Numbered from the stretch's first letter, positions 4,415 through 40,122 are shown. The stretch is DNA of 64,000 nt from an uncultured delta proteobacterium (GCA_963794325.1 CAWCDG010000004.1:1703972-1767971), one strand, 5' to 3'. A program made the numbers and translations. The notes: generated by a model not told the origin, from the letters alone.

Positions 4415-5734
4415 TTAGAGCATGCGGCCTATCTTCTGGCGCAGGCGGCCGAAGAATCCGGCGCGAGCGACTTCACGTTTAGCCACGATCGGAATCGTCG
4501 CTTCAGGCTTGCCATTAAACAGGACCGTCAGATTGCCGACCGAGACTCCCGGTTGAACCGGCGCCTCGAGGTACCGCACTGACGGCTCGAACTGAACCGT
4601 CGCCTTGGTCTCCTCGCCGCGCCCGAGCGTAAACACCGCATCGCCATTAGGCCCGATCGCGACAGTTTCATCGACACCGTCGTGCACTGGTATCGTCCTG
4701 GGCAGCGTCTTTCTCAGATCAGGCCGGTAGCTGACGAAAGTGCGAAACGCCCAATCGATCAATTTCTCGGATTCGGTAACGCGCCGCGCCTCGCTCGGCG
4801 CGCCCAGCACCGCCGACAGCAGATTCATCCCGTTGGAGGTCGCCGACGCGACCAGATGATAGCCGGCTTCGTCGACGTGGCCGGTCTTGATTCCGTTCAC
4901 GCGCGGGTCGTGGAGCAGCAGCTTGTTGAAGTTTGGCTGCGAGATTTTGTCGAAGGTGAATTCCTTGGCCGAGGTGTATTTGATCGCTTCAGGATGATGC
5001 GTGACGAGCGAGTGTGCCAGCGCGACCATGTCGGCCGCGGTGGTGAACTCGCCTTCTTCGGGCAGGCCGTCGGGATTGTCGAAGTGAGTCTCCTTGAGGC
5101 CGATTTCCGCGGCCTTGTCGTTCATCATCTTGGTGAACGCATCGGTGCTTCCTCCGAGGTATTCAGCGAGCGCGACGGCGGCATCGTTGCCCGAGGAGAC
5201 CATCAGACCAAAAAGGAGATCGTTCACCGCGACTTTCTGCCCGACGCCCAGGAACATCCGCGAGACGGTATCGTTCATGGAGAGCCGCCAGGCATTTTCG
5301 CTGATCGTGATGTCGGTCGAAGGCGAGATCTTGCCCGCCTTGAGCGCGTCGAGAGTGAGATAGAACGTCATGATCTTCGCGAGGCTCGCGGGCTGCATCT
5401 TCTCGTGCTCGTTGTAGGCGTACAGCACCGCACCGGTGTCGGCGTCGATCATCATGGCGGCCCTCGCGTCGAGGGCGAACGGCGCCGGCCGATCTCCGAG
5501 CACGTGAATCGAGCTCAGCGCAACGGCTGGGGCCTCTTCGTGCGGCTTCGGTGCGACGGGATGCCGGTGAATGACCTTCGCAAACGCAGCAGTGGAACTC
5601 GCCGCCACCACAGCGATCGCTGCAAGCACAATTATTTTCGAGATTGGTTTTATCCGCACGCCCGTCCTCAGCCGCCTGAACAGATTACTACGCGAGCGCC
5701 CGACGCGCGACGTTCGCCAATCGTCATATTCCAT
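4415..5734 (-). CDS. D-alanyl-D-alanine carboxypeptidase (serine peptidase S11, PBP5/DacC-like)
   Basis: ORF 4415..5794. Active-site motifs SLAKIM (SxxK), SGN and KTG are present, with a signal peptide. The exact start is uncertain. Confidence 0.85.
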   Translation of the reverse strand: MEYDDWRTSRVGRSRSNLFRRLRTGVRIKPISKIIVLAAIAVVAASSTAAFAKVIHRHPVAPKPHEEAPAVALSSIHVLGDRPAPFALDARAAMMIDADTGAVLYAYNEHEKMQPASLAKIMTFYLTLDALKAGKISPSTDITISENAWRLSMNDTVSRMFLGVGQKVAVNDLLFGLMVSSGNDAAVALAEYLGGSTDAFTKMMNDKAAEIGLKETHFDNPDGLPEEGEFTTAADMVALAHSLVTHHPEAIKYTSAKEFTFDKISQPNFNKLLLHDPRVNGIKTGHVDEAGYHLVASATSNGMNLLSAVLGAPSEARRVTESEKLIDWAFRTFVSYRPDLRKTLPRTIPVHDGVDETVAIGPNGDAVFTLGRGEETKATVQFEPSVRYLEAPVQPGVSVGNLTVLFNGKPEATIPIVAKREVARAGFFGRLRQKIGRML

Positions 5735-5762: not shown

Positions 5763-7076
5763 TTGGTGGATATCTCCGTAATTTTACCGGTCATGAACGA
5801 GGCCGAAAACCTGCGGGTGCTGATCCCCAGGCTGACCGCGTTGCTGGACCGCGAGCGGATCAGTCACGAGATCGTCGTGATCGACGGCCCCTCCACCGAC
5901 GGCACTCGTGAAGTATCGCAGGAACTCGGCGCGCGGGTGGTTGAAGAACGCCGGCACGGATTCGCAGGCGCGTTGGAGACGGGTATTGCCGAGGCGCGCG
6001 GCGACTACGTGCTGACGCTCGACGCCGACCAATCGCACGACCCGGATTTCGTCGTCAAGATGTGGCGCGCTCGGACGCGCGCGGACATCGTAGTTGCGTC
6101 GCGCTACGTGCTGGGCGGCGTCGCTTACTCGGATTTTATCCGCCGATCGACCAGCTGGTTTCTGAACCAGGCATTGCGGCGGATGCTCTCGATACCGGTG
6201 CTCGACATGTCCAGCGGATATCGCCTGTACCGGCGCGAGGTGTTTGCCGAGCTGGAACTCACCTCCTCGAACTTCGAGGTGCAGGAGGAAATCCTGGTCA
6301 AGGCCTACGCCAGCGGATTCAGCGTGGTGGAAGTTCCGTTCACCTATTTTCCGCGCGGCGCGGGACGCTCGCACGCGAAGCTATTCAGCTTCGGCTGGAA
6401 GATTTTCCGCTCTTCGCTGTCACTGTGGAAAATCCGCAACTCGCTCATGTCCGCCGACTATGACGAGCGCGCCTTCTACAGCCGGATTCCGCCGCAACGC
6501 TATTGGCAGCGCCGGCGCCACCGCATCACTGTGCTATGGGCGCGCGGCGCAGACCGGGTACTCGACGCGGGATGCGGCTCCAGCTTGATCGTGCAGAGCC
6601 TCAACAACGTGGTCGGCATGGACTTCAACTACGCGAAGCTCCGCTTCTTACGCCGCTACGGGATTCCGCTGATCAACGGATCGGCCTTCGCGCTGCCATT
6701 CAAGGACGGCTCCTTCGATTGCGTAATGAGCTCGCAGGTCATTGAGCATATTCGATACGACGAGTCGATTTTCAGCGAGATGCATCGGGTGCTCCGCGCG
6801 GGCGGCACGTTGGTACTCGGCACACCCGACTACGCGACTATTGGCTGGCGGATGATCGAGCCGATTTATGGATTTCTGATGCCGGGCGGATACAAGGACC
6901 AGCACATTACGCATTACACGCTCGACCAGCTGCGCGAGATCCTGACGCGCTACGGAATCGTGATCGAGGAGGTTGCTTACATCGCGCGCAGCGAAGTGAT
7001 CCTCAAGTGCCGCAAGACTGGAATTGAGAATCGTGCGCGGGCTGAGGCCGCCGCGGTCGCATCGACGGCGGCATGA
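5763..7076 (+). CDS. Family 2 glycosyltransferase fused to a class I SAM-dependent methyltransferase domain
   Basis: N-terminal GT2 motifs (ISVILPVMNEAENL, VIDGPSTDGT, DADQSHDP). C-terminal methyltransferase motif I (VLDAGCGSS) and a type-11-like domain. Confidence 0.8.
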   Translation: MVDISVILPVMNEAENLRVLIPRLTALLDRERISHEIVVIDGPSTDGTREVSQELGARVVEERRHGFAGALETGIAEARGDYVLTLDADQSHDPDFVVKMWRARTRADIVVASRYVLGGVAYSDFIRRSTSWFLNQALRRMLSIPVLDMSSGYRLYRREVFAELELTSSNFEVQEEILVKAYASGFSVVEVPFTYFPRGAGRSHAKLFSFGWKIFRSSLSLWKIRNSLMSADYDERAFYSRIPPQRYWQRRRHRITVLWARGADRVLDAGCGSSLIVQSLNNVVGMDFNYAKLRFLRRYGIPLINGSAFALPFKDGSFDCVMSSQVIEHIRYDESIFSEMHRVLRAGGTLVLGTPDYATIGWRMIEPIYGFLMPGGYKDQHITHYTLDQLREILTRYGIVIEEVAYIARSEVILKCRKTGIENRARAEAAAVASTAA

Positions 7077-7504
7077 AGGCTGAGCGAGTCGTGCCGCTGA
7101 GAAGATCAGCCGGTGCGCTGTCTATTCTGCTGGCGATCGCGACTTGCACCGCCTCGTGCTCGAGCAATGAGGAGCAGGCGCCCGAGATGAATCTGCCCAG
7201 CATGCAAATCTCGCCCGCTGCGCCCGGCAGTTGCCGGATCGATGCAATCAAGATGTGCCAGGCGGAGGGCGGCGGGAGCGCGGCGCCGCAGGAGGAGCAG
7301 AAGGCGACGATGCCGATGCCTACCTACGGACCTCCCAATCTTCCTGACTCAATCGAATTTCAAATTCCCGCGGGCCAGGCAATCAAGCTGACGTGCTATT
7401 ACGATCCCCAGCACAAATCGGTTTACAAGGCCGACGCCACCCCGGACGCCGCGCTTACGGCGAACTCGGTCGAGTACATGACAAAACAGGGCTTCTGCGA
7501 GTAG
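7073..7504 (+). CDS. Hypothetical lipoprotein
   Basis: Signal peptide with lipobox (LAIATC). No recognisable domain. Confidence 0.45.
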   Translation: MKAERVVPLRRSAGALSILLAIATCTASCSSNEEQAPEMNLPSMQISPAAPGSCRIDAIKMCQAEGGGSAAPQEEQKATMPMPTYGPPNLPDSIEFQIPAGQAIKLTCYYDPQHKSVYKADATPDAALTANSVEYMTKQGFCE

Positions 7505-7514
7505 AGGCCCTCGG

Positions 7515-8099
7515 CTACTGGCCCGCGCGGTCGGCGGCTTTCTGCGCGGCGGCTGCTGCCGCTGCCGCGGCGGCGTGGGTCTGAGCAGTCTTTTCCATGG
7601 CGGCTTTGCGCTGCTCGCCGCGCGCGAGATTCTGTCTCATCTGAGCCCCGCCTGCGGCGCCCAGATCTTGCGATTCCCACTTGGGCTTCGCGACCGAGAC
7701 CCATCGGCCACCATCGAGCGCGTAGGTGAAAACCAGGTACTTGAGCTTGCCGGTCGCGAAACCTTTGGGGGTGCCGCCCTTCTTGCTCGGATCGTACTCG
7801 ACCCCGCCGAGCTTGCAGCTTACGACGAGATGGTTGTGCGGGCCGTAGGTTGGCAGATACTCGAACTTCTGCATCAGGTCGATGTACACTTGGCCCTTGC
7901 CTTTCTTTTCATCCTGCTCGTCGAAGTAGGGCCCGGACACATCGGAGAGTTTGTCCTGGAGCGACTGCTCCAGGGCGGGCGTCAGATCCTTTTGCGCGCG
8001 CGCATGTTGCAAGTCATATGCATTTGCGAGCGACGCATTCAGCGGAAAAAAGAGCGCGGCCGCAAGGGCGACCGCGCTGAGGATCTTGAGGTTCTTCAT
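7515..8099 (-). CDS. Hypothetical secreted protein with C-terminal poly-Ala tract
   Basis: N-terminal signal peptide (MKNLKILSAVALAAALFFPLNASLANA). No recognisable domain. Confidence 0.45.
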   Translation of the reverse strand: MKNLKILSAVALAAALFFPLNASLANAYDLQHARAQKDLTPALEQSLQDKLSDVSGPYFDEQDEKKGKGQVYIDLMQKFEYLPTYGPHNHLVVSCKLGGVEYDPSKKGGTPKGFATGKLKYLVFTYALDGGRWVSVAKPKWESQDLGAAGGAQMRQNLARGEQRKAAMEKTAQTHAAAAAAAAAAQKAADRAGQ

Positions 8100-8145
8100 A
8101 ACGTCCCAGCCATCGTCTTACTAGACGACTGGCTCGCGCAAATAT

Positions 8146-9369
8146 TTACTGACTCCCGCTGCCGCCGCTATTCAGCCCGCGGCCGAAAGCAGACACTTGC
8201 GACTGCCACTGGTCGCCGAAGGCGAGGATCAGGACCTGCTGGTTGATATGGGCGTCCTTGGTCAGCGACTTCATCGAGCCGCCACCCGCTGCCGCGAGCA
8301 CTTTGTACGCCGCTTGAGTCTGCCGATAGAACGCCGGCAACGGCGAGATCTTCGGCGGCTCCTCGCGATGCACCTTCAGCCAGAACTCGCGCTCGAACCG
8401 CTCGTGCTCTTCAGCCGCGACGTCCACCGTGTTGAAAGTCCCGTTGTTGGATTTGAATTGGCGTATCAGCGCAAGCAGCGGTGCGAAGTCCTCGGTGCGC
8501 GGGGGCGAATCGCCGACCAGCACCACGACCTTCTTGGCGTACGGCTTCCAGTCCATCTTGTTGATTCCGGTCTGGACCGCGCCCAGCGTGTCCTCTTCCC
8601 ATTCGCCGCCGCCCATCGCCTGGATGCCGTTAAGGAATTCGCTGAGCTTCTGCGGCGACAGCGTCAGCGGCTGGATATTCATCTTCTCGCCCTTGCCGCC
8701 GAACACGATTATTCCGATTCGCGCAATCGGCACCAGCCGGTGAATCGACTGAACGAGTTGCTCCATCTTGGCTTTGACGTCGTCGATGATCAGTTTCATC
8801 GAGCCGGTGCCGTCGATTACCAGCACCACGTCGAGGCCTTTACGTCGCAGCTCGCCGATGAAGCCGCCGAAGCCCGAGCCGATGCCGTGGCCGTAGCCTG
8901 AGCCCATGCCGCCGCCACGGCCGATACCGATACCGCCGCCGCCGGCTGCGCGCACGTAGTCATTGGCGAGACCGACTGCCTGCGAGGTGTCGACCGCGGT
9001 CGGCTGTTCCATCTGTTGCGGCGCCGAGTCGGGCATCGGCACTTCGGGCATGTCGAGATCCTGCATCTCGTTGCCGCCGCCACCGCCGCCGCCCGCCTCG
9101 AGGTTCACCATGATCAATTCGCGGCCACGCTGCTCGTGGACCGTGATGATCAGGAAAAGCAGGGCGAGAACGTGAAGGGCGACCGATAGAGGAAAAGGCC
9201 CGATCAACAGACCAAGCGCATCTTTTATCTTCTGCAGGCGGGTCGCATCCGCCTCGTCATCGTCGCGATTGGCCTCGGCGAGGGCCTCTCGCTTGCCGAT
9301 AATTCGGTAGAAGATAAAAGCGACGACGAACGTCGAGAGGACCAGTAAAGCGATGATTACTGCGATCAT
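8146..9369 (-). CDS. von Willebrand factor A (vWA) domain membrane protein occupying the TonB position of an ExbBD cluster
   Basis: N-terminal TM helix, acidic region and second TM, then a Gly-rich linker and a vWA domain with a MIDAS-like DGTGS motif (LVIDGTGSM). Confidence 0.75.
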   Translation of the reverse strand: MIAVIIALLVLSTFVVAFIFYRIIGKREALAEANRDDDEADATRLQKIKDALGLLIGPFPLSVALHVLALLFLIITVHEQRGRELIMVNLEAGGGGGGGNEMQDLDMPEVPMPDSAPQQMEQPTAVDTSQAVGLANDYVRAAGGGGIGIGRGGGMGSGYGHGIGSGFGGFIGELRRKGLDVVLVIDGTGSMKLIIDDVKAKMEQLVQSIHRLVPIARIGIIVFGGKGEKMNIQPLTLSPQKLSEFLNGIQAMGGGEWEEDTLGAVQTGINKMDWKPYAKKVVVLVGDSPPRTEDFAPLLALIRQFKSNNGTFNTVDVAAEEHERFEREFWLKVHREEPPKISPLPAFYRQTQAAYKVLAAAGGGSMKSLTKDAHINQQVLILAFGDQWQSQVSAFGRGLNSGGSGSQ

Positions 9370-32840: not shown

Positions 32841-32945
32841 AATGACTTTTTGTGTCATTCTTGAGCGCTTCTGGATAACTCCGCTTTCACCAGCCGAAGC
32901 CCTGAGCCCAGCCGAGCGGGGAAGAATCCCGGATTCTTCTTTGCC
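32841..32945. repeat. Degenerate MITE-like hairpin (GTGTCATTCTTGAGCG variant) plus a gaagaatcccggattcttc palindrome
   Basis: aatgactttttgtgtcattcttgagcgcttctgg and the palindrome at 32920-32940. The GC content drops to the right of this point. Confidence 0.4.
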
Positions 32946-33199
32946 TCGCTCACTGAAGGGGAGCCGTCGCGACGCGCGTCCGCGTGCGGCGAGTGAGGGA
33001 CGTTTGCGCGGCGCGATTGTCTCGCGCGTCGCGATCAGATCCCAAGCTAAATACGAACGTTTGACGTGCGAGAAGTAAAATCAAGGCAAGCAGTTGCCTC
33101 GTCACAAAATCGCTGAGGTTTCAGTGGCCGAATGTTTCAGAACCGTACATCGCACGCGGGAAGGTTGCTCAGTGTATAATTCTGAACCCTAACGCGCCT

Positions 33200-33796
33200 A
33201 TGCCAAAGAAGAGAAATATACGGACGCAACGGCCAGACGATGCGTTTTCGATGGGGCCAATCTCGTTCGCTCGCTTCGGAAAAAATCTTGTCTGGAAGAG
33301 CGATTGGCCTGAAGGCGCCTTTAATGAAATGCAAGAGCAGCGAATCCAACACTATCCCAAAACCGTAGAGAAGATTGACAAGCTCATATCTGAGATCACA
33401 AGCCTCATCGGCGAGCTGCCGCCTGATAGGCTTCTACATCGAGCTTGGTGGGAAATGACCCATCTGCACAGGAAAGTTGCCAACGAAACCAGCGTCGCGT
33501 CAGACGAGAGCGCTTCGGTTCGAATGATCGACTACGTTCAAAGCGTTATCGCTGCTGCGCCGCGAGAGCATAGTCCACGAGAAGAGTTAACAGAAGAAGA
33601 GTGGGCAACGCTACGAGAAAAGGTCGACGAGCTTTTCCGAACGGTCTCCTTTGACTATCAATTCTGCCGTACCGCAAAGAACAAAGCCGAAGATCCGAAT
33701 TTCGACAAAGACTTCGAAGAATTCCGATTGCGGCTGAGATCTACTGGTGCAACGTCAGGGGTAAGAGATATCAGGTCCATGAAACCGCCTACCTGA
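33200..33796 (+). CDS. Hypothetical protein, fragment 1 of a probable single ~815-aa ORF; low-GC region
   Basis: No recognisable domain. The downstream frame is already open from 33655. Adding one base in the aaa run near 33781 fuses this ORF to the next. Confidence 0.4.
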   Translation: MPKKRNIRTQRPDDAFSMGPISFARFGKNLVWKSDWPEGAFNEMQEQRIQHYPKTVEKIDKLISEITSLIGELPPDRLLHRAWWEMTHLHRKVANETSVASDESASVRMIDYVQSVIAAAPREHSPREELTEEEWATLREKVDELFRTVSFDYQFCRTAKNKAEDPNFDKDFEEFRLRLRSTGATSGVRDIRSMKPPT

Positions 33797-33801
33797 AGGA
33801 T

Positions 33802-34608
33802 ATGTTCCTTCCACATTCTGACGTGTTGCAGGAACTATTTGGCATCTCTGGCGAGCAGTTCGTCGATGAGATTACTAAAATCTGGCATGTACTATCGTTT
33901 GGCATCAGCGATGCGGCCGAGTCATTCGGTCGATTTCAGGACGATGTAATGGACGCGCTCGACAGGAAGAGGATCGGCTTACCACCGCCGACTGAAGATG
34001 AAATGTTAGCCTTGACGTCTGAGGTCGTGAAGGAACACGGATGGGAAGATCGCCAAGATGACGTTTTAGGCCGCTTCTTTGGTATGGATCTTTTCGATCT
34101 TCAAAAAACCACAACACTCCCGCGTCGCTTACTGGACGAGTTATCTTGGTCGCCCGGAGAGGAAGTGGAATTCTTTGCAGAAGGTGCGTATAGCGGTTGG
34201 CCTCTTCGTGTCTGGCCGATCTTCAAGCGTCCTTTCATCCGATTGGACGGCCGATACTATTGTTTCGATCTCTATAGCCTTCTCGACAATCTTTACCGCG
34301 TCATGCAGCGCCTGATCCGAAATCTTAAGCCATCCTATGAGCAAACTTGGAACCGCATTCAGCAGAAAGCATCGGAAGACCTTCCTTTCAAATACTTAGA
34401 GACCTTGCTGCCAGGGGCAGATGTATGGAGGCAGGTTTACTATCGCGGTAAAACAGTCACGGGCGCCAGCGAATGGTGCGAGACTGACGGACTCCTCATT
34501 TATGATGACCACCTGTTCGTCATCGAGCGAGAGGTGGGGCCTTCACGTACACGCCTCCTGCGATCGATTTTCCTGCCTATGTTGCATCACTTAGGAACCT
34601 CGTCTTAA
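33802..34608 (+). CDS. Hypothetical protein, fragment 2 of the probable single ORF
   Basis: No recognisable domain. Contains the acidic segment DGLLIYDDHLFVIEREVG. A one-base change in the tttt run near 34567 would fuse it to the 34644 ORF. Confidence 0.4.
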   Translation: MFLPHSDVLQELFGISGEQFVDEITKIWHVLSFGISDAAESFGRFQDDVMDALDRKRIGLPPPTEDEMLALTSEVVKEHGWEDRQDDVLGRFFGMDLFDLQKTTTLPRRLLDELSWSPGEEVEFFAEGAYSGWPLRVWPIFKRPFIRLDGRYYCFDLYSLLDNLYRVMQRLIRNLKPSYEQTWNRIQQKASEDLPFKYLETLLPGADVWRQVYYRGKTVTGASEWCETDGLLIYDDHLFVIEREVGPSRTRLLRSIFLPMLHHLGTSS

Positions 34609-34643
34609 AGCCCGCAACGCAGGGCAAGCGATTCGTTGAGTAT

Positions 34644-34955
34644 TTGAAAAGTGCCGACGCGGTTCCTTTGTTCGACAGAGATCACAAGCAGGTCGGTGAG
34701 CTACGCAAGAAGAACTTTCGCCACATCACAATATGCCCGGTAACCCTCGACCCATTCACCGAAATAGCCGCTCAGGTACAACATCTCCGTAAGATTGGTG
34801 TCGACGTTGGTTCCGAGCCCATTTGGGTCGTATCTCTAGACGATCTCCGCGTGTACGCGGACATTTTCGAAAATCCCCTGCTTTTCCTGACACTACGTGG
34901 AGCAGAGAATGCAAGGTTTCCGGTCGAACGTTATCAGGTCCGACGACGAGCTTGA
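34644..34955 (+). CDS. Hypothetical protein, fragment 3 of the probable single ORF
   Basis: TTG start. Its frame is open from 34509. It overlaps the next ORF by 59 nt in another frame; a one-base change at the ttt run near 34916 would fuse them. Confidence 0.35.
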   Translation: MKSADAVPLFDRDHKQVGELRKKNFRHITICPVTLDPFTEIAAQVQHLRKIGVDVGSEPIWVVSLDDLRVYADIFENPLLFLTLRGAENARFPVERYQVRRRA

Positions 34956-35652
34956 TCATCTGGGCCTCTACCTAAAGCACAACCATTTCACTACCTATGC
35001 TCAGGAAATTCACGGTGACTCCGATGCCAGAATCAGGTTCGTCGGATACCGGGCGAGTATCGACAAATTTTTTAGTGAGCGCATGCTTGACCCAACCACA
35101 CCCTGCCCTTTAAAGCAGGAAATCCCACCACGCATTCTGGAGATTGTCGAGTTCCTATCGCGCAGCAACAAACCGGGCCGCGCGGAAATCGCTGCCTTTC
35201 TGCTGGATATTGACGCCGTAAGGCGTACGCCGGTCGCGAGGAACATCGATGAGGAATTGTTGAGGCAGCCCACCACTAAGCGACCGATGCCATTCTCGAT
35301 GCATGCTGGCGTGAATCTGACAGTCTTCTGCTGGACCAACGCTTGGGCCCAGAGACGAGCTCCCCTTGCGCTTTACCACACGCGGACAGTGTTCCTGATC
35401 CACGAAGAGTCGCGTCGCCTTTTGCTTGAACTAAGTTACACAGACTCCGGCGTTCTCAAAGACATCGACTGGAATTGGGTAGACTCAGCCAGCATACCTT
35501 CGCATGAGTTGCCAAGCTTGCGCGCCAACGCAGACGGGTTGCGTCGCGAAAGGATCACCAAGGCGAAGGGCGCAAAGGGGAAAATCGAAAGAAACGATCC
35601 GTGTCCTTGCGGCAGCGGCAGGAAGTACAAGCGATGCTGCCTGGGGCGATAG
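34897..35652 (+). CDS. Hypothetical protein with C-terminal SEC-C zinc-binding motif, fragment 4 of the probable single ORF
   Basis: GTG start. The C-terminus DPCPCGSGRKYKRCCLGR matches the SecA C-terminal (SEC-C) metal-binding motif. Nothing else is recognisable. Confidence 0.45.
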   Translation: MEQRMQGFRSNVIRSDDELDHLGLYLKHNHFTTYAQEIHGDSDARIRFVGYRASIDKFFSERMLDPTTPCPLKQEIPPRILEIVEFLSRSNKPGRAEIAAFLLDIDAVRRTPVARNIDEELLRQPTTKRPMPFSMHAGVNLTVFCWTNAWAQRRAPLALYHTRTVFLIHEESRRLLLELSYTDSGVLKDIDWNWVDSASIPSHELPSLRANADGLRRERITKAKGAKGKIERNDPCPCGSGRKYKRCCLGR

Positions 35653-35699
35653 CAAGCCAATGAAAGGGATAGAGTTCTCTCGTTGCTCTCTCTGCGCGA

Positions 35700-35966
35700 T
35701 ATGCATCGCATCAAGCAATCCTGCTTTAGTTGTCCCTCACCCGCGCCGGAGGCGCGGCCTCTCCCCACGAACGGGCGAGGCTAAGAACCCAGGGTCCCTC
35801 TGCGGAGCCTGCCCTGAGCGAAGTCGAAGGGGTCGGGATGACACAAGGACTCAGGAGTGGCTGCGCAGGATCCGGATGCGCACCTTGAATCGCGCGCGAA
35901 AAAAATCGCGCGCTGAACAAGGTCCCTCTCCTTAAATCCTCTCCCGTCGGGAGAGGGGAAGATAAG
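35700..35966. repeat. Cluster of short hairpin repeats (CTCTCCCGN6CGGGAGAGG..ATAAG family and a GTGTCATCCCGACCCCTTCGACTTCGCTCAGG variant)
   Basis: ctctcccgtcgggagaggggaagataag at 35937-35966 recurs at 47264-47300. The interval 35812-35845 is a variant of the MITE-like family. Confidence 0.45.
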
Positions 35967-36016
35967 AAAAACACATCGCCTGCTCAGTTTCGGTATCAAC
36001 GCCAAGCCGGAAAACT

Positions 36017-36044
36017 ATTCGTGTTTCGTTCTCCTGAACTTTAT
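36017..36044. repeat. 28-bp direct repeat (left copy) flanking the IS1595-family transposon-like unit
   Basis: attcgtgtttcgttctcctgaactttat is identical to 38828-38855. Confidence 0.7.
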
Positions 36045-36224
36045 GGGGATTAGTAGTTTGTTGACACCATTCCTGCTAATCTGGCGTCGGCGTGACAGGC
36101 CGACGACAACCGTTGACATTCGCACCTGCTATATTCGCTGTCTGATCGCCTTGCGTTTTTAAGTGCGGTCTATAACCAAGGACGTTCTCCGCTTCGTCGG
36201 AGTTCGTGTTATAAGGTCAGCGTC

Positions 36225-37070
36225 ATGGCAAGATTGCGGTTTCGGTTTGAATTGAGGCGGGACGCCAAGGGCGTCCAATTGCAGAAGCTCGCCAAGATCG
36301 CCGAGGAGACGCAACGTTTCTTGCGAATGATGGCGAAGGACGTAGAGAACGACCGGCTTCAGGAAGATTGGGTTGCCGTTAATTTCTTGGACCACTCGAT
36401 CGGTTACGACTTAGAATTCATCGGTGACGCCGACGAAGACGAAGCACGAATCTTCCGCCGCGCTGTTCTCCATGTTGCAAATTGGACTACGAACGGTCAC
36501 TCGCGCGAGGGTGTGCAAGGTGTTCGGAAGGAAACGCTTCTCCAATTCGCAAAGATCGCAGAGCCGCTCGAATCTACAGAGAAAATAGATTGGGGGTTTT
36601 TTAACGGAACCGATCCCGATCTTCCTACCGACGCTCCCTTGGACTGGCGTTCCTTAACTAAGAGCCAGGCTCTCGCTGTCTCTGAGCGATTGAGCCAAAT
36701 AATTGAATACCGAGGAATGATTCAGGGAATCATTCACTCTCTGTACAAAGAATCGTCGCCTCCGTACTTCGACGCTAGGCAGTTATCTACTCAAGATATA
36801 GTTAAGTGCTTGTATAAACAGGAAGACTACAGACTTGTAGTTAACTTGTTGCAACGGCGGGACGCCGTAGTAATAGTCTCTGGACTCATTAAGGCACGTC
36901 GCCTAGATCGCAAAATCACAGAGATTCGTATCGAACGAATGCGTTCCACAGAACCATTGTCCGATGCGGAGTTTGCGAAGTTGCAGGGCGCTGCACCGGA
37001 GTTGACAGGACGACTAAGCACTGACGATTTCATTGAGCGCCAGCGCCGTAGAGACAATGGCGACGAATAA
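36225..37070 (+). CDS. Hypothetical protein (281 aa), transposon cargo gene 1
   Basis: ATG at 36225. No recognisable domain or HTH. It overlaps the downstream PIN gene by 14 nt, so the two are probably co-transcribed. Confidence 0.45.
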   Translation: MARLRFRFELRRDAKGVQLQKLAKIAEETQRFLRMMAKDVENDRLQEDWVAVNFLDHSIGYDLEFIGDADEDEARIFRRAVLHVANWTTNGHSREGVQGVRKETLLQFAKIAEPLESTEKIDWGFFNGTDPDLPTDAPLDWRSLTKSQALAVSERLSQIIEYRGMIQGIIHSLYKESSPPYFDARQLSTQDIVKCLYKQEDYRLVVNLLQRRDAVVIVSGLIKARRLDRKITEIRIERMRSTEPLSDAEFAKLQGAAPELTGRLSTDDFIERQRRRDNGDE

Positions 37071-37629
37071 ACAACAAGCGTACATGGATTCTTGCTGCTT
37101 TATCGAATACGTAAAGCACAAGGTGGGCATTCCATTAAGTACCGAGCGCGACAACGAAGCTTGGTATATTGGCCAATTGCTACAAGCATCGGCTGACCGA
37201 GACATTGAAATATACACTTCTACGTTAACCGTCGCCGAATGCACTCACGCTGAAGGCGATATAAGTGATGAAGTTCAGGATTGGTTTATTCGGCTTCTAA
37301 CGTCGGGGAAGCACGTAATATTAGTAGAGCCAGATATTTTCGTCGCAGAACTCGCTAGAGACCTACGATGGAGACATAACATTCGCCTAGGGGGTGCGGA
37401 TGGCTTGCACGTCGCTTCAGGTATCGATAGGGCTTGCGTCGAATTCTTGACGTTGGAAGGCGAGAAAAAGAATAACGCGATTCTCAGAAACAAGGGTGAG
37501 ATCGTAAAGCTGGGCATGACTCCTCGGCATCCCTCCGATACAACCTGTCTTAGCGAGGAGTACCGACAACAGGTCGTGCCTGGTGTGCCTCCAGCGCCAC
37601 GAAAAAGGAAGATGGGAAAGAAGAAGTAA
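37057..37629 (+). CDS. PIN-domain (VapC-like) putative ribonuclease, transposon cargo gene 2
   Basis: Acidic residues sit in PIN-like positions: AYMDSCCFIEY (Asp 1), STLTVAEC (Glu) and GGADGLHVASGIDRAC (Asp 3 and 4). The C-terminal tail is basic. The start could be ATG 37057 or 37084. Confidence 0.5.
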   Translation: MATNKQQAYMDSCCFIEYVKHKVGIPLSTERDNEAWYIGQLLQASADRDIEIYTSTLTVAECTHAEGDISDEVQDWFIRLLTSGKHVILVEPDIFVAELARDLRWRHNIRLGGADGLHVASGIDRACVEFLTLEGEKKNNAILRNKGEIVKLGMTPRHPSDTTCLSEEYRQQVVPGVPPAPRKRKMGKKK

Positions 37630-37838
37630 GGCGCTATCTAGCGCTTCTGCTTTTGCGCCTTATCGATTTTTTCTTTCGGGACGTTCACCAGGTGCCGCAT
37701 CATCCGGTCGAATTCTGACATGTCCGCGTTTTTCAGTGCTTCGCGGAGTTCTTTTGTCTTCGCGCGGATTGACGGGGAATCTGAAGTCGCCTTGGGCACG
37801 TCGCCACTTTAGCGAATTCACAGGCACGCGGCTACGGA

Positions 37839-38774
37839 CTAGACGTTTGATATGAGTTCAGCAAACGGATCGTCGTCGTGACGCCGATTGTGCCGATACG
37901 TGAACTCCGACAGATAAAGCGGTAAGTAGTCTTTCGATACTTTATGATAGCTGCCCATGATGCCGCGCCGGAGCAACGACCAGAACGATTCAATCGTCTG
38001 CGTATGCACACGACCGCGCACGTACTCATCGTTCTTGTGCGTAACGAAATCGTGCTTGAAGCCCATCCGATCCAGATTCCGGTAACGGAAGCTCTCATCA
38101 GTCGCGATCAGATCGACCTTACTCGAAACCGTCTTTTTGACGAAATCATCATACGTTCGGAAATCGGCATCTTCGACCATCTGGCAGACTACGTTGCCTT
38201 TGCGGGCAATGGCTCCGATGACTTCGGTCTTTCCGACAGGGCCGCGCCGATTGGCGCGTTGGCTCTTGTGCTTGTTGCGCTCCAAGCCGCCAAGGTAAAC
38301 CTCATCGATCTCGACCACGCCCATCAGTTGTTCCCACTGCGAATCTTTCATCGCGGCGCGCAGTCTCATGCACTGATACCAAGTCGTGTGATAGTTGTTC
38401 AGGTGCTTCGAGCCGTACATCATCCGGTGAAGCTGGAGCGCACTGATTCCCTTCTTCGACGTGAGCATCAAGTATCCGATTTTGAACCACGATTTGAGCG
38501 GGCGTTTCGTGTTCTCAAAAATCGTGTGCGTGATCACGCTGAACCTGTAGCCGTTCTGCTTGCCGCACGTGAGCACTTCGCCAGTCTCTTTGTTGACCGA
38601 CTCTTTGCCGCTCTTGCAGACCCAATTGAATGGACGCGCCTTGAGTTCGTAAACCTTTTCGTTCCCGCATCGCGGACAGGTAACCTTGCCATCCGGCCAG
38701 CGCATATCCTTGACGTACTGGCGACAAGCTTCTTCGGTCGGGAACCGTTGATCGAAAGCATCTAGCGTTTGCAT
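37839..38774 (-). CDS. IS1595-family transposase (ISXO2-like DDE transposase with N-terminal zinc ribbon)
   Basis: N-terminal CPRCGN...C zinc ribbon and a DDE_Tnp_IS1595 core (VEIDEVYLGG ... IATDESFRY ... HTQTIESFWSLLRRGIMGSYHKVSKDYLPLYLSEFTYRHNRR). Confidence 0.9.
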   Translation of the reverse strand: MQTLDAFDQRFPTEEACRQYVKDMRWPDGKVTCPRCGNEKVYELKARPFNWVCKSGKESVNKETGEVLTCGKQNGYRFSVITHTIFENTKRPLKSWFKIGYLMLTSKKGISALQLHRMMYGSKHLNNYHTTWYQCMRLRAAMKDSQWEQLMGVVEIDEVYLGGLERNKHKSQRANRRGPVGKTEVIGAIARKGNVVCQMVEDADFRTYDDFVKKTVSSKVDLIATDESFRYRNLDRMGFKHDFVTHKNDEYVRGRVHTQTIESFWSLLRRGIMGSYHKVSKDYLPLYLSEFTYRHNRRHDDDPFAELISNV

Positions 38775-38827
38775 ACTGATCAGAATAGCGGATTAGCGAG
38801 TCGGTGTCAACAGCCTACTAATCCCCG

Positions 38828-38855
38828 ATTCGTGTTTCGTTCTCCTGAACTTTAT
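38828..38855. repeat. 28-bp direct repeat (right copy) flanking the transposon-like unit
   Basis: attcgtgtttcgttctcctgaactttat is identical to 36017-36044. Confidence 0.7.
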
Positions 38856-38858
38856 TGC

Positions 38859-38886
38859 CAAAAACGTTTCACGTGAAACGTTTTTG
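38859..38886. repeat. Perfect 28-bp palindrome CAAAAACGTTTCACGTGAAACGTTTTTG
   Basis: Self-complementary with a CACGTG core. A second copy of the 24-bp core lies 135 bp away. Confidence 0.7.
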
Positions 38887-38995
38887 CACAAAAAGCGAAC
38901 AAAATCAGGCGCTTGTGAAATCTGAAACCCGGGAATCGCACCAATTTAATGTGACGATCGGTCGGCGCCGATCAACTCGATGTTATCGGCGTCCG

Positions 38996-39019
38996 AAAAC
39001 GTTTCACGTGAAACGTTTT
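38996..39019. repeat. Second copy of the perfect palindrome AAAACGTTTCACGTGAAACGTTTT
   Basis: Identical 24-bp core, 20 nt downstream of the oppC stop. Confidence 0.7.
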
Positions 39020-39038
39020 GCTCCTGGACGCCGGTTAA

Positions 39039-40122
39039 TCAGGTGGCGTTAGCGGGGTCCAGGCGGTCTCTTAGGTGGTCGCCCAGGAAGTTAAACGACA
39101 TTACGGCCAGGAAGATGAAGATTCCCGGGATTAAGATCCAGGGGTAGCGGGCCAGGTTTTGGACGTCCTGGGCTTGGGCCAGGAGGTTGCCCCAGCTGGC
39201 GGCGGGTTCCTGGATGCCGAGGCCCAACAGCGACAGGGCGCTTTCGCCTAAGATGAAGCCGGGGATTGAGAGGGTGGCGGCGACGATTGCGTAGCCCATC
39301 ACCGACGGGATGATGTGGCGGGTGATGATGCGCCATCGCGAGGCGCCGAGCGCGCGGGCTGCTTCGACGTACGGCCGCGAGCGCACCGAGGACGCCATCC
39401 CGCGGATGATTCGCGCGAAGCCGGCCCAACTGATGAAGCTCATGATCGCGACGATCATGAAAAACGTCGCGACCGCGCCAAGTCCCGACGGAATCACCGC
39501 CGCGAGCGCCAGTAAAAAATAGAATGACGGCAGCGACATCTCGATTTCGGACCATCGCATGATCAGGAAATCGACTGTGCCGCCGATGTATCCCGACAGC
39601 GCGCCGACCGTGATGCCCAGTGAAAAAGTGATCAGCACGCCGATCAGCCCGACGCACATGCTCACGCGCGAGCCGTAAACGATTCGCGACCAAAGGTCGC
39701 GGCCCAAGGCCGTCGCTGCCGAGCATGAAGTACGGCACGCGCTCGCTGTCAGTGGTGAACAGGTGCCAGTGCGAGAACAGGTGGATGTCGAGCCGCTGCG
39801 AATTGTCGGCGGCGAAGGTGCGCGCACTGCTGTCCTGCATATGCATCGGATGCGTATAGAAAATACTGCGCGACCATTCGGACGGCGCGCTCAGGTGAAG
39901 CGACATCGGCGGACAATCGGGCATCTCGCGATTCTGATACGCGGGATCGTAGCTCGCGAAGAACGGCGACGCAGCGGCGAGCAGGTAGAATACGGCGAGG
40001 CAGATTGCGGAAAAGCGCACCGTCCGCGACGCGAGACGCCACTCGCGCGCGATGCTCAATGTTCTCGGCGCGGATACCTCAGCGCCTTGTAGATTTGCCT
40101 GCAATGCGGGAACGGCGTTCAT
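39039..40122 (-). pseudogene. Oligopeptide/dipeptide ABC transporter permease (OppC/DppC-like) with a single-base frameshift near 39700
   Basis: The N-terminal part is in ORF 39091..40122 and the C-terminal part in ORF 39039..39827. The conserved GSDGLGRDLWSRIVYGSRVS motif is split by one extra base in a gggcc run. This may be a real pseudogene or a homopolymer sequencing indel. Confidence 0.7.

Follow-up and report, generated by a model that had tools for sequence, protein, structure and literature searches.

What does a small insertion sequence gain from carrying a PIN-domain nuclease and a large partner protein, and why should it be flanked by direct repeats of 28 bp when its relatives duplicate 8 bp? 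Both questions are raised by a locus in the window analysed here, a 64,000-nucleotide stretch of DNA from an uncultured delta proteobacterium. IS-like elements with passenger genes between their inverted repeats (tIS) are a recognised category in the IS1595 family (bioRxiv 10.1101/2021.05.26.445724).

Results

Structure of the element and its sisters

The sequence from 36045 to 38826 is a 2,782-bp passenger-carrying insertion sequence of the IS1595 family (tIS), as an earlier note on this DNA had proposed, and the transposase domains are clear in both Pfam and NCBIfam. The 311-aa transposase (37839-38774, minus strand) covers the whole DDE_Tnp_IS1595 profile (PF12762, E = 1e-36, positions 1-153 of 153), has an N-terminal Zn ribbon at residues 12-55 (Zn_ribbon_IS1595, PF12760, E = 2.7e-13) and scores 169.9 bits against the NCBIfam model transpos_IS1595 (NF033547, E = 7e-50, cut-off 75). 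The short terminal inverted repeats that also characterise the family are IRL on the cargo side (GGGGATTAGTAGTTTGTTGACACC, 36045-36068, plus strand) and IRR on the transposase side (38803-38826, minus strand), within which a −35-like TTGACA points toward the transposase gene. They agree at 22 of 24 positions, and the 64-kb window has no further copy of either. The backbone of the element consists of IRR, the transposase gene, a conserved 53-aa ORF and IRL, and the cargo slot, here filled by two genes (36225-37629), lies between the 53-aa ORF and IRL. This ORF (37638-37799, minus strand; motif KTKELRExLxNADMxEFDRMMRHLxNVPKxKID) lies downstream of the transposase gene and belongs to the conserved backbone of the whole clade; it had been overlooked earlier, the three other ORFs being as claimed. 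A terminator-like hairpin (37629-37646) separates the cargo operon from the small-ORF/transposase unit that runs toward it.

Six sister elements have the same inverted repeats and transposases 65-89% identical to that of the window, which confirms that the 24-bp repeats are the element ends. Their 8-bp target duplications start exactly outside GGGGATTAG and read AACTAAAG in L007 (4949-8508) and L009 (4770-7877), AACTAAAA in L008 (4705-7654), TTCGCGAA in L010 (4950-8605), TTTGTTTT in L011 (4949-10180) and AACAAAAA in L013 (4949-8191). Homology between the window element and its sisters is confined to 37641-38833 and the 24-nt IRL, ending directly inside IRL. The sister cargoes include a SocA/Panacea antitoxin-domain protein, a protein that is RHH-like, a PIN protein whose partner has 268 aa (L008), a DUF4325 and HATPase-like pair, and a DUF3800 protein. 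The slot in this clade takes different modules, which are mostly toxin-antitoxin (TA)-like or have no assigned function.

Target motif

The 28-nt direct repeat ATTCGTGTTTCGTTCTCCTGAACTTTAT is perfect and occurs exactly twice in the window, as DR-L (36017-36044, plus strand) and DR-R (38828-38855, plus strand); no comparable 28-nt match was found in 100 shuffles, even with 3 mismatches allowed. It forms the left arm of an intergenic motif of about 50 nt, conserved and low in copy number: ATTCGYGTTTY-GTTCTCCTGAAC-spacer-ACGTTTCACGTGAAACGT. The right arm is present in the window as the palindrome CCAAAAACGTTTCACGTGAAACGTTTT (38858-38884), and DR-R together with 38856-38884 makes one full uninterrupted copy. 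A scan for the uninterrupted motif gave at least 120 copies or contigs from soil and peat metagenomes, and none of the contigs listed appeared twice, including contigs of 160-468 kb. A second copy of the palindrome lies 135 nt downstream, outside the element (38993-39019); such a second palindrome less than 200 nt away was also seen in 12 of 110 metagenomic motif copies. The Rfam 15 covariance models gave no match at E<=1 over 35600-39300, no tRNA or tmRNA gene was found in the 64-kb window, and the motif had no structured-RNA signal beyond the two hairpins already fixed by the search pattern.

Five relatives, found in Binatia MAGs, have their insertions in this motif as well; the genome of the window element is itself probably from Binatia. 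The complete elements L007, L008, L009 and L013 have the same motif offset as the window element, in both orientations and with 8-bp duplications, and L014 is a partial element with a motif-like flank. Since both orientations were seen and the flanking genes are non-homologous between loci, these insertions are independent. The transposase prefers a fixed position in the motif, 5 nt beyond the small hairpin GTTC-TCCT-GAAC and shortly before the palindrome ACGTTTCACGTGAAACGT, and the left junction of the window element falls exactly at this canonical position.

The 28-bp flanking repeat

The window copy departs from the family in its flanks: in place of an 8-bp duplication abutting both ends, it has the 28-nt repeats and one additional nucleotide. 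The repeats had been described as lying directly outside both inverted repeats, which holds for DR-L and IRL but not for the right side, where a single G (38827, plus strand) parts IRR from DR-R. The nine other complete elements all have 8 bp, and the 28-bp duplication is without parallel among them; the 8-bp trait is therefore valid for the clade, with the window copy as the exception. The final 8 nt of DR-L (AACTTTAT, 36037-36044) occupy the place of the 8-bp duplication in relatives, and the repeat is a duplicated left arm of the motif, made of the 20 nt upstream of the usual duplication plus AACTTTAT. As the 28-mer is 20 nt plus this 8-mer, the right end of the window element is joined 20 nt (and one G) further upstream than in its relatives.

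Three explanations had been put forward in the earlier note: insertion into a pre-existing repeat, recombination, or longer true element ends. The last is excluded for the 28-mer, because relatives end exactly at GGGGATTAG and the side on which the 28-mer lies varies with orientation. Insertion into a pre-existing repeat came closest, the 28-mer being part of a conserved dispersed motif that is the preferred target of the clade. A search for the 28-bp repeat at other copies, which the same note had called for, found 8-bp duplications in its place, while these copies uphold the inverted repeats as true ends.

The two junctions are not equally documented. The left one (DR-L plus IRL) is present in two independent assemblies, L001 and L137, and the right one (IRR, G, DR-R) in a single assembly, that of the window. 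L001 ends within the transposase gene, short of the right junction; L137, a diverged sister contig, stops 2 nt beyond the IS terminus with AA and not GA, which weakly suggests a canonical AACTTTAT junction there. We tentatively regard an abnormally long target duplication at insertion as the single likeliest cause of the 28-bp repeat, although a simple long stagger would leave the extra G unexplained and the right junction comes from one assembly. If real, the repeat would be a rare record of aberrant strand-transfer geometry.

It is possible, if rather doubtful, that an 8-bp AACTTTAT duplication was formed first and that the extra 21 nt beside IRR (G plus ATTCGTGTTTCGTTCTCCTG) were acquired later. 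An empty allele or a second motif copy could have supplied them by recombination or gene conversion; alternatively, an IS-mediated intramolecular rearrangement (adjacent deletion or inversion) may have brought IRR up against the upstream edge of a further motif copy. Adjacent deletions are a known property of IS1, which is related to IS1595. Such an origin would fit the right flank well, in that DR-R and the palindrome form a complete and intact motif copy that includes the consensus G before ATTCG (the commonest base there, in 51% of 99 motif copies), where DR-L is preceded by T (36016). It would also fit L137, which has the same left junction and then the IS end with the AA expected of a canonical junction; and such genomes contain further copies of the motif, as it is dispersed and repeated. 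Nevertheless, the second copy would have to be identical over 28 nt, including the locus-specific spacer variant TTTAT, and motif copies usually differ at several positions. A transposase-driven rearrangement, moreover, should strike the canonical position of the second motif and not its upstream edge, and gene conversion would require an illegitimate junction exactly at the IS terminus.

The fact that L001 and L137 both stop before or at the right junction, leaving it to the window alone, also bears on a third explanation, namely that assembly or polishing produced this junction artificially, in a long-read MAG with both filled and empty alleles, and that the real duplication has 8 bp. The relatives of the element do stem from long-read MAG projects, and nine of nine other complete elements have 8 bp. 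We nonetheless hold an artefact to be quite unlikely: the 28 nt are duplicated without a mismatch, a chimeric consensus should have T and not G before ATTCG, a clean 21-nt insertion is not a normal product of polishers, and the remainder of the element consists of intact ORFs.

The cargo pair

The cargo genes, encoding a 281-aa protein (36225-37070, plus strand) and a 190-aa protein (37057-37629, plus strand), are co-oriented and overlap by 14 nt, as had been described. The identification of the second as a PIN nuclease was borne out by its AF2 model (pLDDT 92.6), which has a VapC-type PIN fold with a conserved acidic quartet (D11, E61, D115 and E134) and whose nearest structural matches are VapC toxins and not FEN-type nucleases; the sequence itself lies below the Pfam PIN threshold (19.1 vs 23.6 bits). 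A PIN fold with conserved acidic active-site residues is what the toxin of a VapBC pair has.

The 281-aa partner has no match in Pfam or NCBIfam. Its AF2 model (pLDDT 84.8) predicts an N-terminal alpha/beta domain for which no structural match was found, an OB fold at about residues 159-242, and a C-terminal tail of low pLDDT with conserved G255, P258 and R274. The predicted OB fold resembles those of SSB, RPA and PriB and is of the class IIb aminoacyl-tRNA synthetase anticodon-binding/SSB type, and one member of the partner family matches Pfam tRNA_anti-codon. Hence the earlier statement that the protein has no recognisable domain stands for sequence families and fails for predicted structure, and the view that it is no VapB-type antitoxin is strengthened, with 281 aa and an OB fold instead of a known antitoxin DNA-binding domain (RHH, AbrB, Phd or HTH). 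The family comprises 626 clusters at 50% identity, uniformly of about 270 aa (265-283 aa), and has no Pfam or PADLOC entry. Profiles of the partner and PIN families, searched against PDB sequences, found none.

In each of the nine independent contexts with a PIN gene, the partner gene lies directly upstream of it and the two overlap by 1-14 nt; only in the tenth context (L002) does the partner gene stand without a PIN gene. The overlapping upstream gene, conserved as a pair with the toxin-like gene, is the arrangement of VapBC. In four of the ten contexts (the window, L138, L141 and L142) the pair is inside IS1595 elements, whose transposases belong to at least three distant clades; a one-off capture of the pair is ruled out by this recurrence. 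L138, L141 and L142 are complete elements with 8-bp duplications. In L138 and L141 the transposases have 34-35% identity to that of the window, the partners are 36% identical (E 1e-54 to 1e-67) and the PIN proteins about 47-48%; the L142 PIN protein is 45% identical. All three elements have the transposase, partner and PIN genes and a small ORF in this order on a single strand, with gaps between transposase and partner genes of 8, -19 and 32 nt, so that cotranscription with the transposase is possible, as is translational coupling in L141, where the pair overlaps the transposase gene by 19 nt. Sequence comparison further makes the 268-aa cargo protein of L008 a remote homologue of the partner (hhalign probability 84%, E 7e-6).

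Five of the ten contexts have the pair without any transposase (L003, L004, L145, L146 and L147). The non-tIS contexts are defence or mobile islands, among them type I R-M loci and a resolvase/AcrVA2-like island, and AAA_15, nSTAND-WD40 and other defence-type genes are further neighbours. Neither the window pair nor the L008 pair has a match at E<=1 in PADLOC-DB v2, and the phage and plasmid collections hold no homologues. In keeping with the earlier suggestion that the pair is undescribed, we found no description of it in Pfam, NCBIfam, PADLOC, PDB sequences, the plasmid and phage collections or the literature searched.

Discussion

We then asked what such a pair would do within a transposon. 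The best reading, and one that we consider fairly probable, is that site-specific tIS elements here carry a hitherto undescribed addiction or defence module of a VapBC-like kind. The 190-aa protein would be the toxin, a VapC-type PIN ribonuclease, and the 281-aa protein, translationally coupled upstream of it, a putative antitoxin or regulator. We infer that the partner probably neutralises or gates a toxic nuclease through its conserved C-terminal tail (G255-x2-P258...R274), and that its OB fold probably binds nucleic acid, whether single-stranded DNA, RNA or the operator of the module itself. The module would most likely serve addiction or abortive defence and so favour retention of the element, as proposed for the TA pairs of the Tn3 family. 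Some observations sit less easily with this reading: the partner is about three times the size of VapB and lacks an RHH, AbrB or HTH DNA-binding domain, PADLOC has no match, and in three tIS the pair is directly downstream of the transposase gene on the same strand, which could mean a role in transposition. Moreover, an OB fold would be equally fitting for a substrate-recruiting subunit.

The two proteins could be the subunits of an RNA-targeting enzyme or of an anti-phage effector, with the OB-fold protein as a sensor or substrate adaptor, for example for phage single-stranded DNA or tRNA anticodon loops, and not as a classical labile antitoxin. The anticodon-binding/SSB type of the OB domain agrees with this, as does the vicinity of type I R-M, AAA_15, nSTAND-WD40 and other defence-type genes, and a uniform length of ~270 aa over 626 clusters argues for more than simple neutralisation. 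We consider it unlikely all the same, given that PADLOC has no match, that phage and plasmid collections lack homologues, and that tight upstream coupling with a conserved disordered C-terminal tail bearing an invariant Arg is a classical type II antitoxin signature. This reading overlaps the best explanation rather than excluding it.

A role in transposition would make the OB-fold and PIN proteins accessory factors of an IS1595 sub-lineage and not a TA pair. The former would bind single-stranded DNA at transposon ends or gapped intermediates, and the latter, which has a fold akin to that of flap endonucleases, would act on the non-transferred strand or on flaps to process them. The pair is indeed inside IS1595 elements of at least three distant transposase clades in 4 of 10 contexts, follows the transposase gene on one strand together with a small ORF in L138, L141 and L142, and has an OB fold like that of SSB, RPA and PriB. 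Such a role is nevertheless very unlikely. The pair lacks a transposase in half of the contexts and the partner is alone in L002; sisters with 82-89% identical transposases carry unrelated cargo and have clean 8-bp duplications; the window pair is convergent with the transposase gene across a terminator-like hairpin; and the PIN model is closest to VapC toxins and not to FEN-type nucleases. Furthermore, relatives of the IS1595 transposase number 4,717 at E<=1e-20, and the large majority of IS1595 transposases are, as far as known, ordinary single-gene IS.

One could also speculate, with considerable doubt, that the pair is a dedicated IS1595 companion, expressed together with the transposase (with translational coupling in some elements) and tied to transposition or enforced retention. 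The Binatia clade would then be a site-specific cargo shuttle bringing interchangeable TA or defence modules to a conserved landing-pad motif, and the partner a new class of nucleic-acid-sensing VapC antitoxins.

If the VapBC-like reading is true, the ~270-aa OB-fold family would represent a novel partner type for PIN toxins like VapC and a testable candidate for coupling such toxins to nucleic-acid sensing. The idea of TA pairs in transposons, so far argued for the Tn3 family, would reach the IS1595 tIS, with the same module captured independently by distant transposase lineages. A DDE clade with a one-motif preference and a swappable slot would also be a natural system for studies of target-site selection and could point the way to tools for programmable or safe-site insertion in soil phyla that have been little studied.

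How does the element compare with known systems? Like other IS1595 tIS, it has one DDE transposase bearing a Zn ribbon at the N-terminus, passengers enclosed by short inverted repeats, and relatives with 8-bp duplications; it differs in the 28 bp that flank the window copy, in the strong preference of its clade for one motif, and in a slot that holds mainly TA-like or unassigned modules. IS1595 members are not known for marked target specificity. The passenger-carrying IS1595 subgroups in ISfinder are ISNwi1+ and ISPna2+, and the ISNwi1 subgroup has ends of type ggnnatTAT and a DDEK-type catalytic motif. The ends GGGGATTAG (window), GGGAATTAT (L138) and GGCGATTAT (L142), of the form GGnnATTA..., appear to resemble the ISNwi1 consensus; database names of the transposase relatives give "IS1595 family transposase" with no subgroup.

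Fixed targets are known from the IS3 and IS110 families, in which IS1397 and ISKpn1 target BIMEs and ISPpu9 and ISPpu10 target REPs. The window clade likewise inserts at a fixed position in a short, conserved, palindrome-bearing intergenic repeat in either orientation, but its motif is not related to theirs in sequence and is low-copy, contigs of up to 468 kb showing no more than one exact copy each. As for the flanks, target duplications usually measure 2-14 bp; long or variable ones are the rule in the IS1634/IS1549 group, and IS1 has occasional longer ones. The window element shares with the IS1634/IS1549 group a duplication far beyond 2-14 bp, but it is the single exception among ten complete related elements, and it has an extra G.

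The cargo resembles VapBC in the VapC-type PIN fold and conserved acidic residues of its downstream product, in the overlap between the two genes, and in the partner tail, which is conserved, probably disordered and has an invariant Arg, as in the toxin-binding C-termini of VapB. By contrast, the partner family is 265-283 aa long, against roughly 70-90 aa for VapB, and combines an OB fold with an unmatched N-terminal domain and no antitoxin DNA-binding domain. For the Tn3 family it has been proposed that TA pairs, some of them with PIN toxins, belong integrally to the transposon, having been repeatedly acquired and swapped between elements, and that they stabilise the transposon or host replicon (Lima-Mendez et al. 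2020, PMC7157771); IS1595 has no occurrence in that paper. The window element similarly has a type II-like TA pair within a transposon, beside the transposition genes. It is, however, a small IS1595 tIS with another mechanism and without a resolvase or res site, and its toxin-like PIN protein is paired with an uncharacterised ~270-aa OB-fold protein and not with an RHH, AbrB, Phd or HTH antitoxin.

The cargo-bearing element and its ends

The element at 36045-38826 of the window (2,782 bp) belongs, as a new member, to an established category, the IS1595-family transporter insertion sequences (tIS). Its 24-nt inverted repeats, IRL (36045-36068) and IRR (38803-38826), begin with GGGGATTAG... (inverted-repeat sequence GGGGATTAGTAGNNTGTTGACACC); they agree in 22 of their 24 positions and have no other copy in the window. 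The transposase (311 aa, 37839-38774, minus strand) is, by its domain matches, unambiguously an IS1595-family enzyme (PF12762, 1e-36; PF12760, 3e-13; NF033547, 7e-50), and an exact look-up of the protein returned no record. A −35-like TTGACA directed toward its gene lies within IRR. The cargo consists of a gene for a 281-aa protein, hereafter the partner (36225-37070, plus strand), and one for a 190-aa VapC-like PIN protein (37057-37629, plus strand). It is convergent with the transposase gene and a 53-aa small ORF (37638-37799, minus strand), and between these units lies a terminator-like hairpin (37629-37646). ORFs and domain matches thus agree with the earlier note, which had described an IS1595 transposase with a two-gene cargo overlapping by 14 nt, and both the inverted repeats and the perfect 28-bp direct repeats are present as it reported. 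The 28-mer, ATTCGTGTTTCGTTCTCCTGAACTTTAT, occurs at 36017-36044 (DR-L) and 38828-38855 (DR-R), with no third copy in the window even at 3 mismatches, and shuffled sequence gave no comparable match. Its placement immediately outside both inverted repeats holds on the left only, since one additional G (38827) intervenes between IRR and DR-R.

Among the species-representative genomes scanned, MAGs of Candidatus Binatus/Binataceae encode transposases related to that of the window (65-89% identity). Six of the sister elements are complete and have the terminal sequence of the window element, GGGGATTAGTAG..TGTTGACACC. In all six, a clean 8-bp duplication begins directly outside GGGGATTAG: AACTAAAG in both L007 and L009, AACTAAAA in L008, AACAAAAA in L013, TTCGCGAA in L010 and TTTGTTTT in L011. 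This establishes the inverted repeats as the genuine ends and 8 bp as the usual duplication length in the clade; at these other copies the 28-bp direct repeat is replaced by 8-bp duplications. The suggestion that the 28-mer belongs to longer true ends has to be abandoned, because the sisters stop exactly at GGGGATTAG and the side of the 28-mer varies with orientation: a 28-mer-like flank is transposase-proximal in L007, L008, L013 and the partial element L014, and on the cargo side in L009 and the window. An integrase-type att site was also rejected, as there is no integrase and the relatives carry plain 8-bp duplications.

A variable cargo slot

Elements of the clade range from 2.8 to 5.2 kb, and homology of the sisters to the window is limited to 37641-38833 (transposase gene and small ORF) and the 24-nt IRL, the remainder between them being different. 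This backbone with a variable interior is the tIS structure, which the TnCentral preprint (bioRxiv 10.1101/2021.05.26.445724) describes as confined to two families, IS1595 and IS66. The slot holds a SocA/Panacea antitoxin-domain protein (1e-20) in L009, an RHH-like small protein and a membrane protein with further ORFs of no assigned function in L007 and L010, a DUF4325 (STAS-like) and HATPase-like pair in L011, and DUF3800 in L013. In L008 it holds, in the same orientation as in the window, a PIN protein (Pfam, 2e-9) and a 268-aa protein. BLASTP between the window and L008 cargos gave no match for the partner; profile comparison aligned the OB fold and tail of the 281-aa family with the 268-aa protein (84% probability, E 7e-6), and on this profile match we read it as a remote homologue. 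Given these contents, the slot is used mainly for toxin-antitoxin-like modules or modules of unassigned function, and swappable cargo in this clade is a new observation. L011 (5,232 bp) also bears an apparent nested IS21-like element, recognized by eye at 6946-8792, in which two ORFs (354 and 298 aa) look istA- and istB-like, respectively.

The small ORF of about 50 aa is found directly 3' of the transposase gene throughout the clade (at about 5930-6140 in L007-L013). It carries the motif KTKELRExLxNADMxEFDRMMRHLxNVPKxKID, matches no known family, and may be a hitherto unnoticed component of these IS1595 elements.

A conserved intergenic target sequence

In the window, L007, L008, L009 and L013, the element lies inside one common short sequence, ATTCGYGTTTYGTTCTCCTGAAC-TAAAR, IS, ...AACGTTTCACGTGAAACGTT, and L014 shows a diverged form of the same flank. 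The flanking genes are non-homologous by tblastx and both orientations are represented. These are therefore independent insertions into the same target, and a single insertion inherited vertically by the relatives was rejected on the same grounds. Uninterrupted copies of the site (GTTCTCCTGAAC, 1-25 nt, CGTTTCACGTGAAAC) were present on at least 120 soil and peat contigs in the metagenomes we searched. Among the matches listed, the spacer is mostly 6-7 nt, with a window-like 14-nt variant also found. On the left, about 11 nt before GTTCTCC are conserved (ATTCGYGWTTY), and on the right about 70 nt after the palindrome; beyond these limits, flanks, neighbouring genes and gene orientations vary between loci. 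The motif has the appearance of a low-copy dispersed intergenic repeat, since no contig among the matches listed carries it more than once, even those of 160-468 kb. Insertion of this clade into a specific motif is a new observation.

The conserved intergenic element spans about 120 nt: ATTCGYGTTTY, GTTCTCCTGAAC, spacer, palindrome AAAACGTTTCACGTGAAACGTTTT and a semi-conserved stretch of about 70 nt, often with ...TTGACTGCCATTGCGC at its end. It occupies 38828-38884 in the window, with a further copy of the palindrome at 38993-39019. The motif gave no Rfam match at E<=1 and its region no tRNA with ARAGORN. RNAalifold on 85 copies returned only two hairpins, with no evidence of covariation; as both were fixed beforehand by the search pattern, we draw nothing from them about RNA structure. 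The only consensus structures are a hairpin, GTTC-TCCT-GAAC, and an A-tract/palindrome/T-tract, the latter looking like a weak bidirectional terminator. The motif may act as a bidirectional terminator or bind a regulator, or it may be a small mobile repeat. That it serves a single conserved gene as promoter or leader was rejected, because the neighbours (mutS, gpmI-like, trpS, acs and others) vary, as does their orientation.

L010 lies outside the motif, in the middle of a perfect-looking palindrome (GGGTCGTYCGCGAA, IS, TTCGCGAACGACCC; 4930-4949 and 8606-8625), and its duplication TTCGCGAA is itself palindromic, a hint that the target preference partly involves DNA prone to form hairpins. Other short repeats lie in the intergenic sequence near the window element, namely the inverted pair ATCTGAAACCCGGGAATC / GATTCCCGGGATTAAGAT (38920-38937 / 39120-39137) and tandem AATCGCGCGC units (35888-35919).

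The 28-bp repeat

The left junction of the window element is canonical: IRL follows ...CTGAACTTTAT, 5 nt past GAAC, as in the relatives. On the right, the canonical junction would read IRR, then AACTTTAT-TGCC..., and the actual one reads IRR, then G-ATTCGTGTTTCGTTCTCCTG-AACTTTAT-TGCC..., that is, 21 nt extra. DR-R and the palindrome at 38858-38884 together constitute one full copy of the motif, whose left arm is present a second time as DR-L. Leaving its cause aside, the 28-bp repeat is thus explained in content as a duplicated left arm of the target motif. Of the earlier note's suggestions, insertion into a pre-existing repeat comes closest, the 28-mer being an arm of a dispersed target motif.

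Duplication of 28 bp in one aberrant step at insertion ranks first among three possible causes, if short of probable: the length equals 8 bp plus about two helical turns, but the extra G is left unaccounted for. The base before ATTCG in motif copies is most commonly G (51%), followed by T (25%). A later rearrangement or conversion involving an unoccupied allele or another copy of the motif seems rather doubtful. The window flanks are absent from all 120 motif loci listed; nor do these loci include a second window-like arrangement, with an IS beside an intact motif, and their sole IR-like match, in L112, is unrelated. An assembly artefact at the right junction is unlikely. That junction is known from the window only, contig L001 terminating within the transposase gene. 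A truly diverged sister contig, L137, has the same left junction as the window; past the IS terminus it has just 2 nt, AA instead of GA, as for a canonical junction, a weak hint that its right junction may be canonical.

L137 (ENA ERZ25039590 contig_93633) spans window 32922-38826 at 94.7% identity. Its PIN protein is identical to that of the window, the 5' region of its transposase gene is clearly diverged and its partner gene call is fragmented; strains may be polymorphic for the element or its surroundings, or may recombine there. Immediately to the left of the element, 33000-35700 has a low GC content (about 0.50 vs 0.58-0.63 in the flanks) and four consecutive same-strand ORFs of 198, 268, 103 and 251 aa, the final one with a SEC-C motif (1.4e-9) at its end. 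The stretch resembles a single large gene split by frameshifts, through pseudogene formation or sequencing errors, and is possibly a separate island.

The PIN-partner pair

The partner protein gave no Pfam, NCBIfam, PADLOC or PDB-sequence match, in line with the earlier note, which had found no recognisable domain in it. One member of its family matches Pfam tRNA_anti-codon. A word-indexed search found 23 relatives, and an exhaustive profile search 626 clusters at 50% identity (207 with E<=1e-30), the best 150 of which are nearly all 245-295 aa. In the structural model (pLDDT 84.8), an alpha/beta domain without structural match forms the N-terminal part, and the C-terminal helical tail, in which G255, P258 and R274 are conserved, is of low confidence. 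Plasmid and phage collections yielded no homologue of this protein, and PDB sequences no relative of either cargo family.

Wherever a PIN gene is present (nine contexts), it directly follows the partner gene, with an overlap of 1-14 nt. Four of the 10 contexts examined are inside complete IS1595 elements: the window element and three others, each with an 8-bp duplication. These are L138 (2,788 bp; IR GGGAATTAT..., duplication AAATTTAG; transposase, 269 aa, PIN, 58 aa, 73 aa), L141 from Nitrospinae (2,765 bp; GGCGTTTGTATAC..., GTTCTTTT; transposase, 270 aa, PIN, 50 aa) and L142 (2,906 bp; GGCGATTAT..., TATTATTT; transposase, 269 aa, PIN, small ORF, Rap1a-like ORF). In L138 and L141, the two compared, transposase identity to the window is just 34-35%, with 36% for the partner and about 47-48% for PIN; the L142 PIN protein is 45% identical. 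The transposase and partner genes of L141 overlap by 19 nt. Such tight transposase-partner-PIN operons in three elements would suit transposition factors, acting for example in ssDNA binding and flap processing. We rate this role low, because the pair is also found without any transposase, sister elements with unrelated cargo transpose cleanly, and the modelled PIN fold is closest to VapC toxins.

In L138, L141 and L142, short ORFs come after the PIN gene; their basic, proline-rich C-terminus is loosely like that of the clade small ORF. The Rap1a-like ORF of L142 (5215-5544; PF18602, a type VI immunity-protein family) is inside the inverted repeats of an element located downstream of lpxB. This element is abundant across samples, as 85 collection blocks have its PIN protein in their index.

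Elsewhere the pair occupies an integrative-element-like island (L003), a resolvase/AcrVA2-like/methylase island (L004), a type I R-M neighbourhood (L146) and plain chromosomal sites (L145, L147); in L002, also a type I R-M neighbourhood, the partner stands without a PIN gene. A link between the SEC-C protein adjacent to the L146 pair and the SEC-C ORF beside the window element was rejected, just the 20-aa SEC-C motif being common to them.

The most economical reading takes the pair for a VapBC-like module whose partner is of a new kind. The PIN protein would be an RNase toxin, which the 281-aa protein would neutralise or gate via its C-terminal tail, the OB fold contributing nucleic-acid binding; carried on a tIS, such a module could favour element retention or host defence. 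The partner is large and has no classical antitoxin DNA-binding domain, which, with the operons of three elements noted above, calls for caution over this reading. The earlier note's proposal of an undescribed toxin-antitoxin or abortive-infection module is supported in part: the resources searched contain no description of the pair, and we infer a PIN toxin-antitoxin-like module of new form, with toxicity, neutralisation and stabilisation as presumed properties. A literature search combining PIN, OB-fold, antitoxin and VapC gave nothing relevant. Toxin-antitoxin pairs, PIN toxins included, have been described as integral to Tn3-family transposons (PMC7157771); IS1595 is absent from that paper and from a 2025 review of toxin-antitoxin systems on mobile elements. 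The pair carried by the window tIS would parallel these Tn3-family pairs, as a toxin-antitoxin module with a PIN toxin aboard a transposon.
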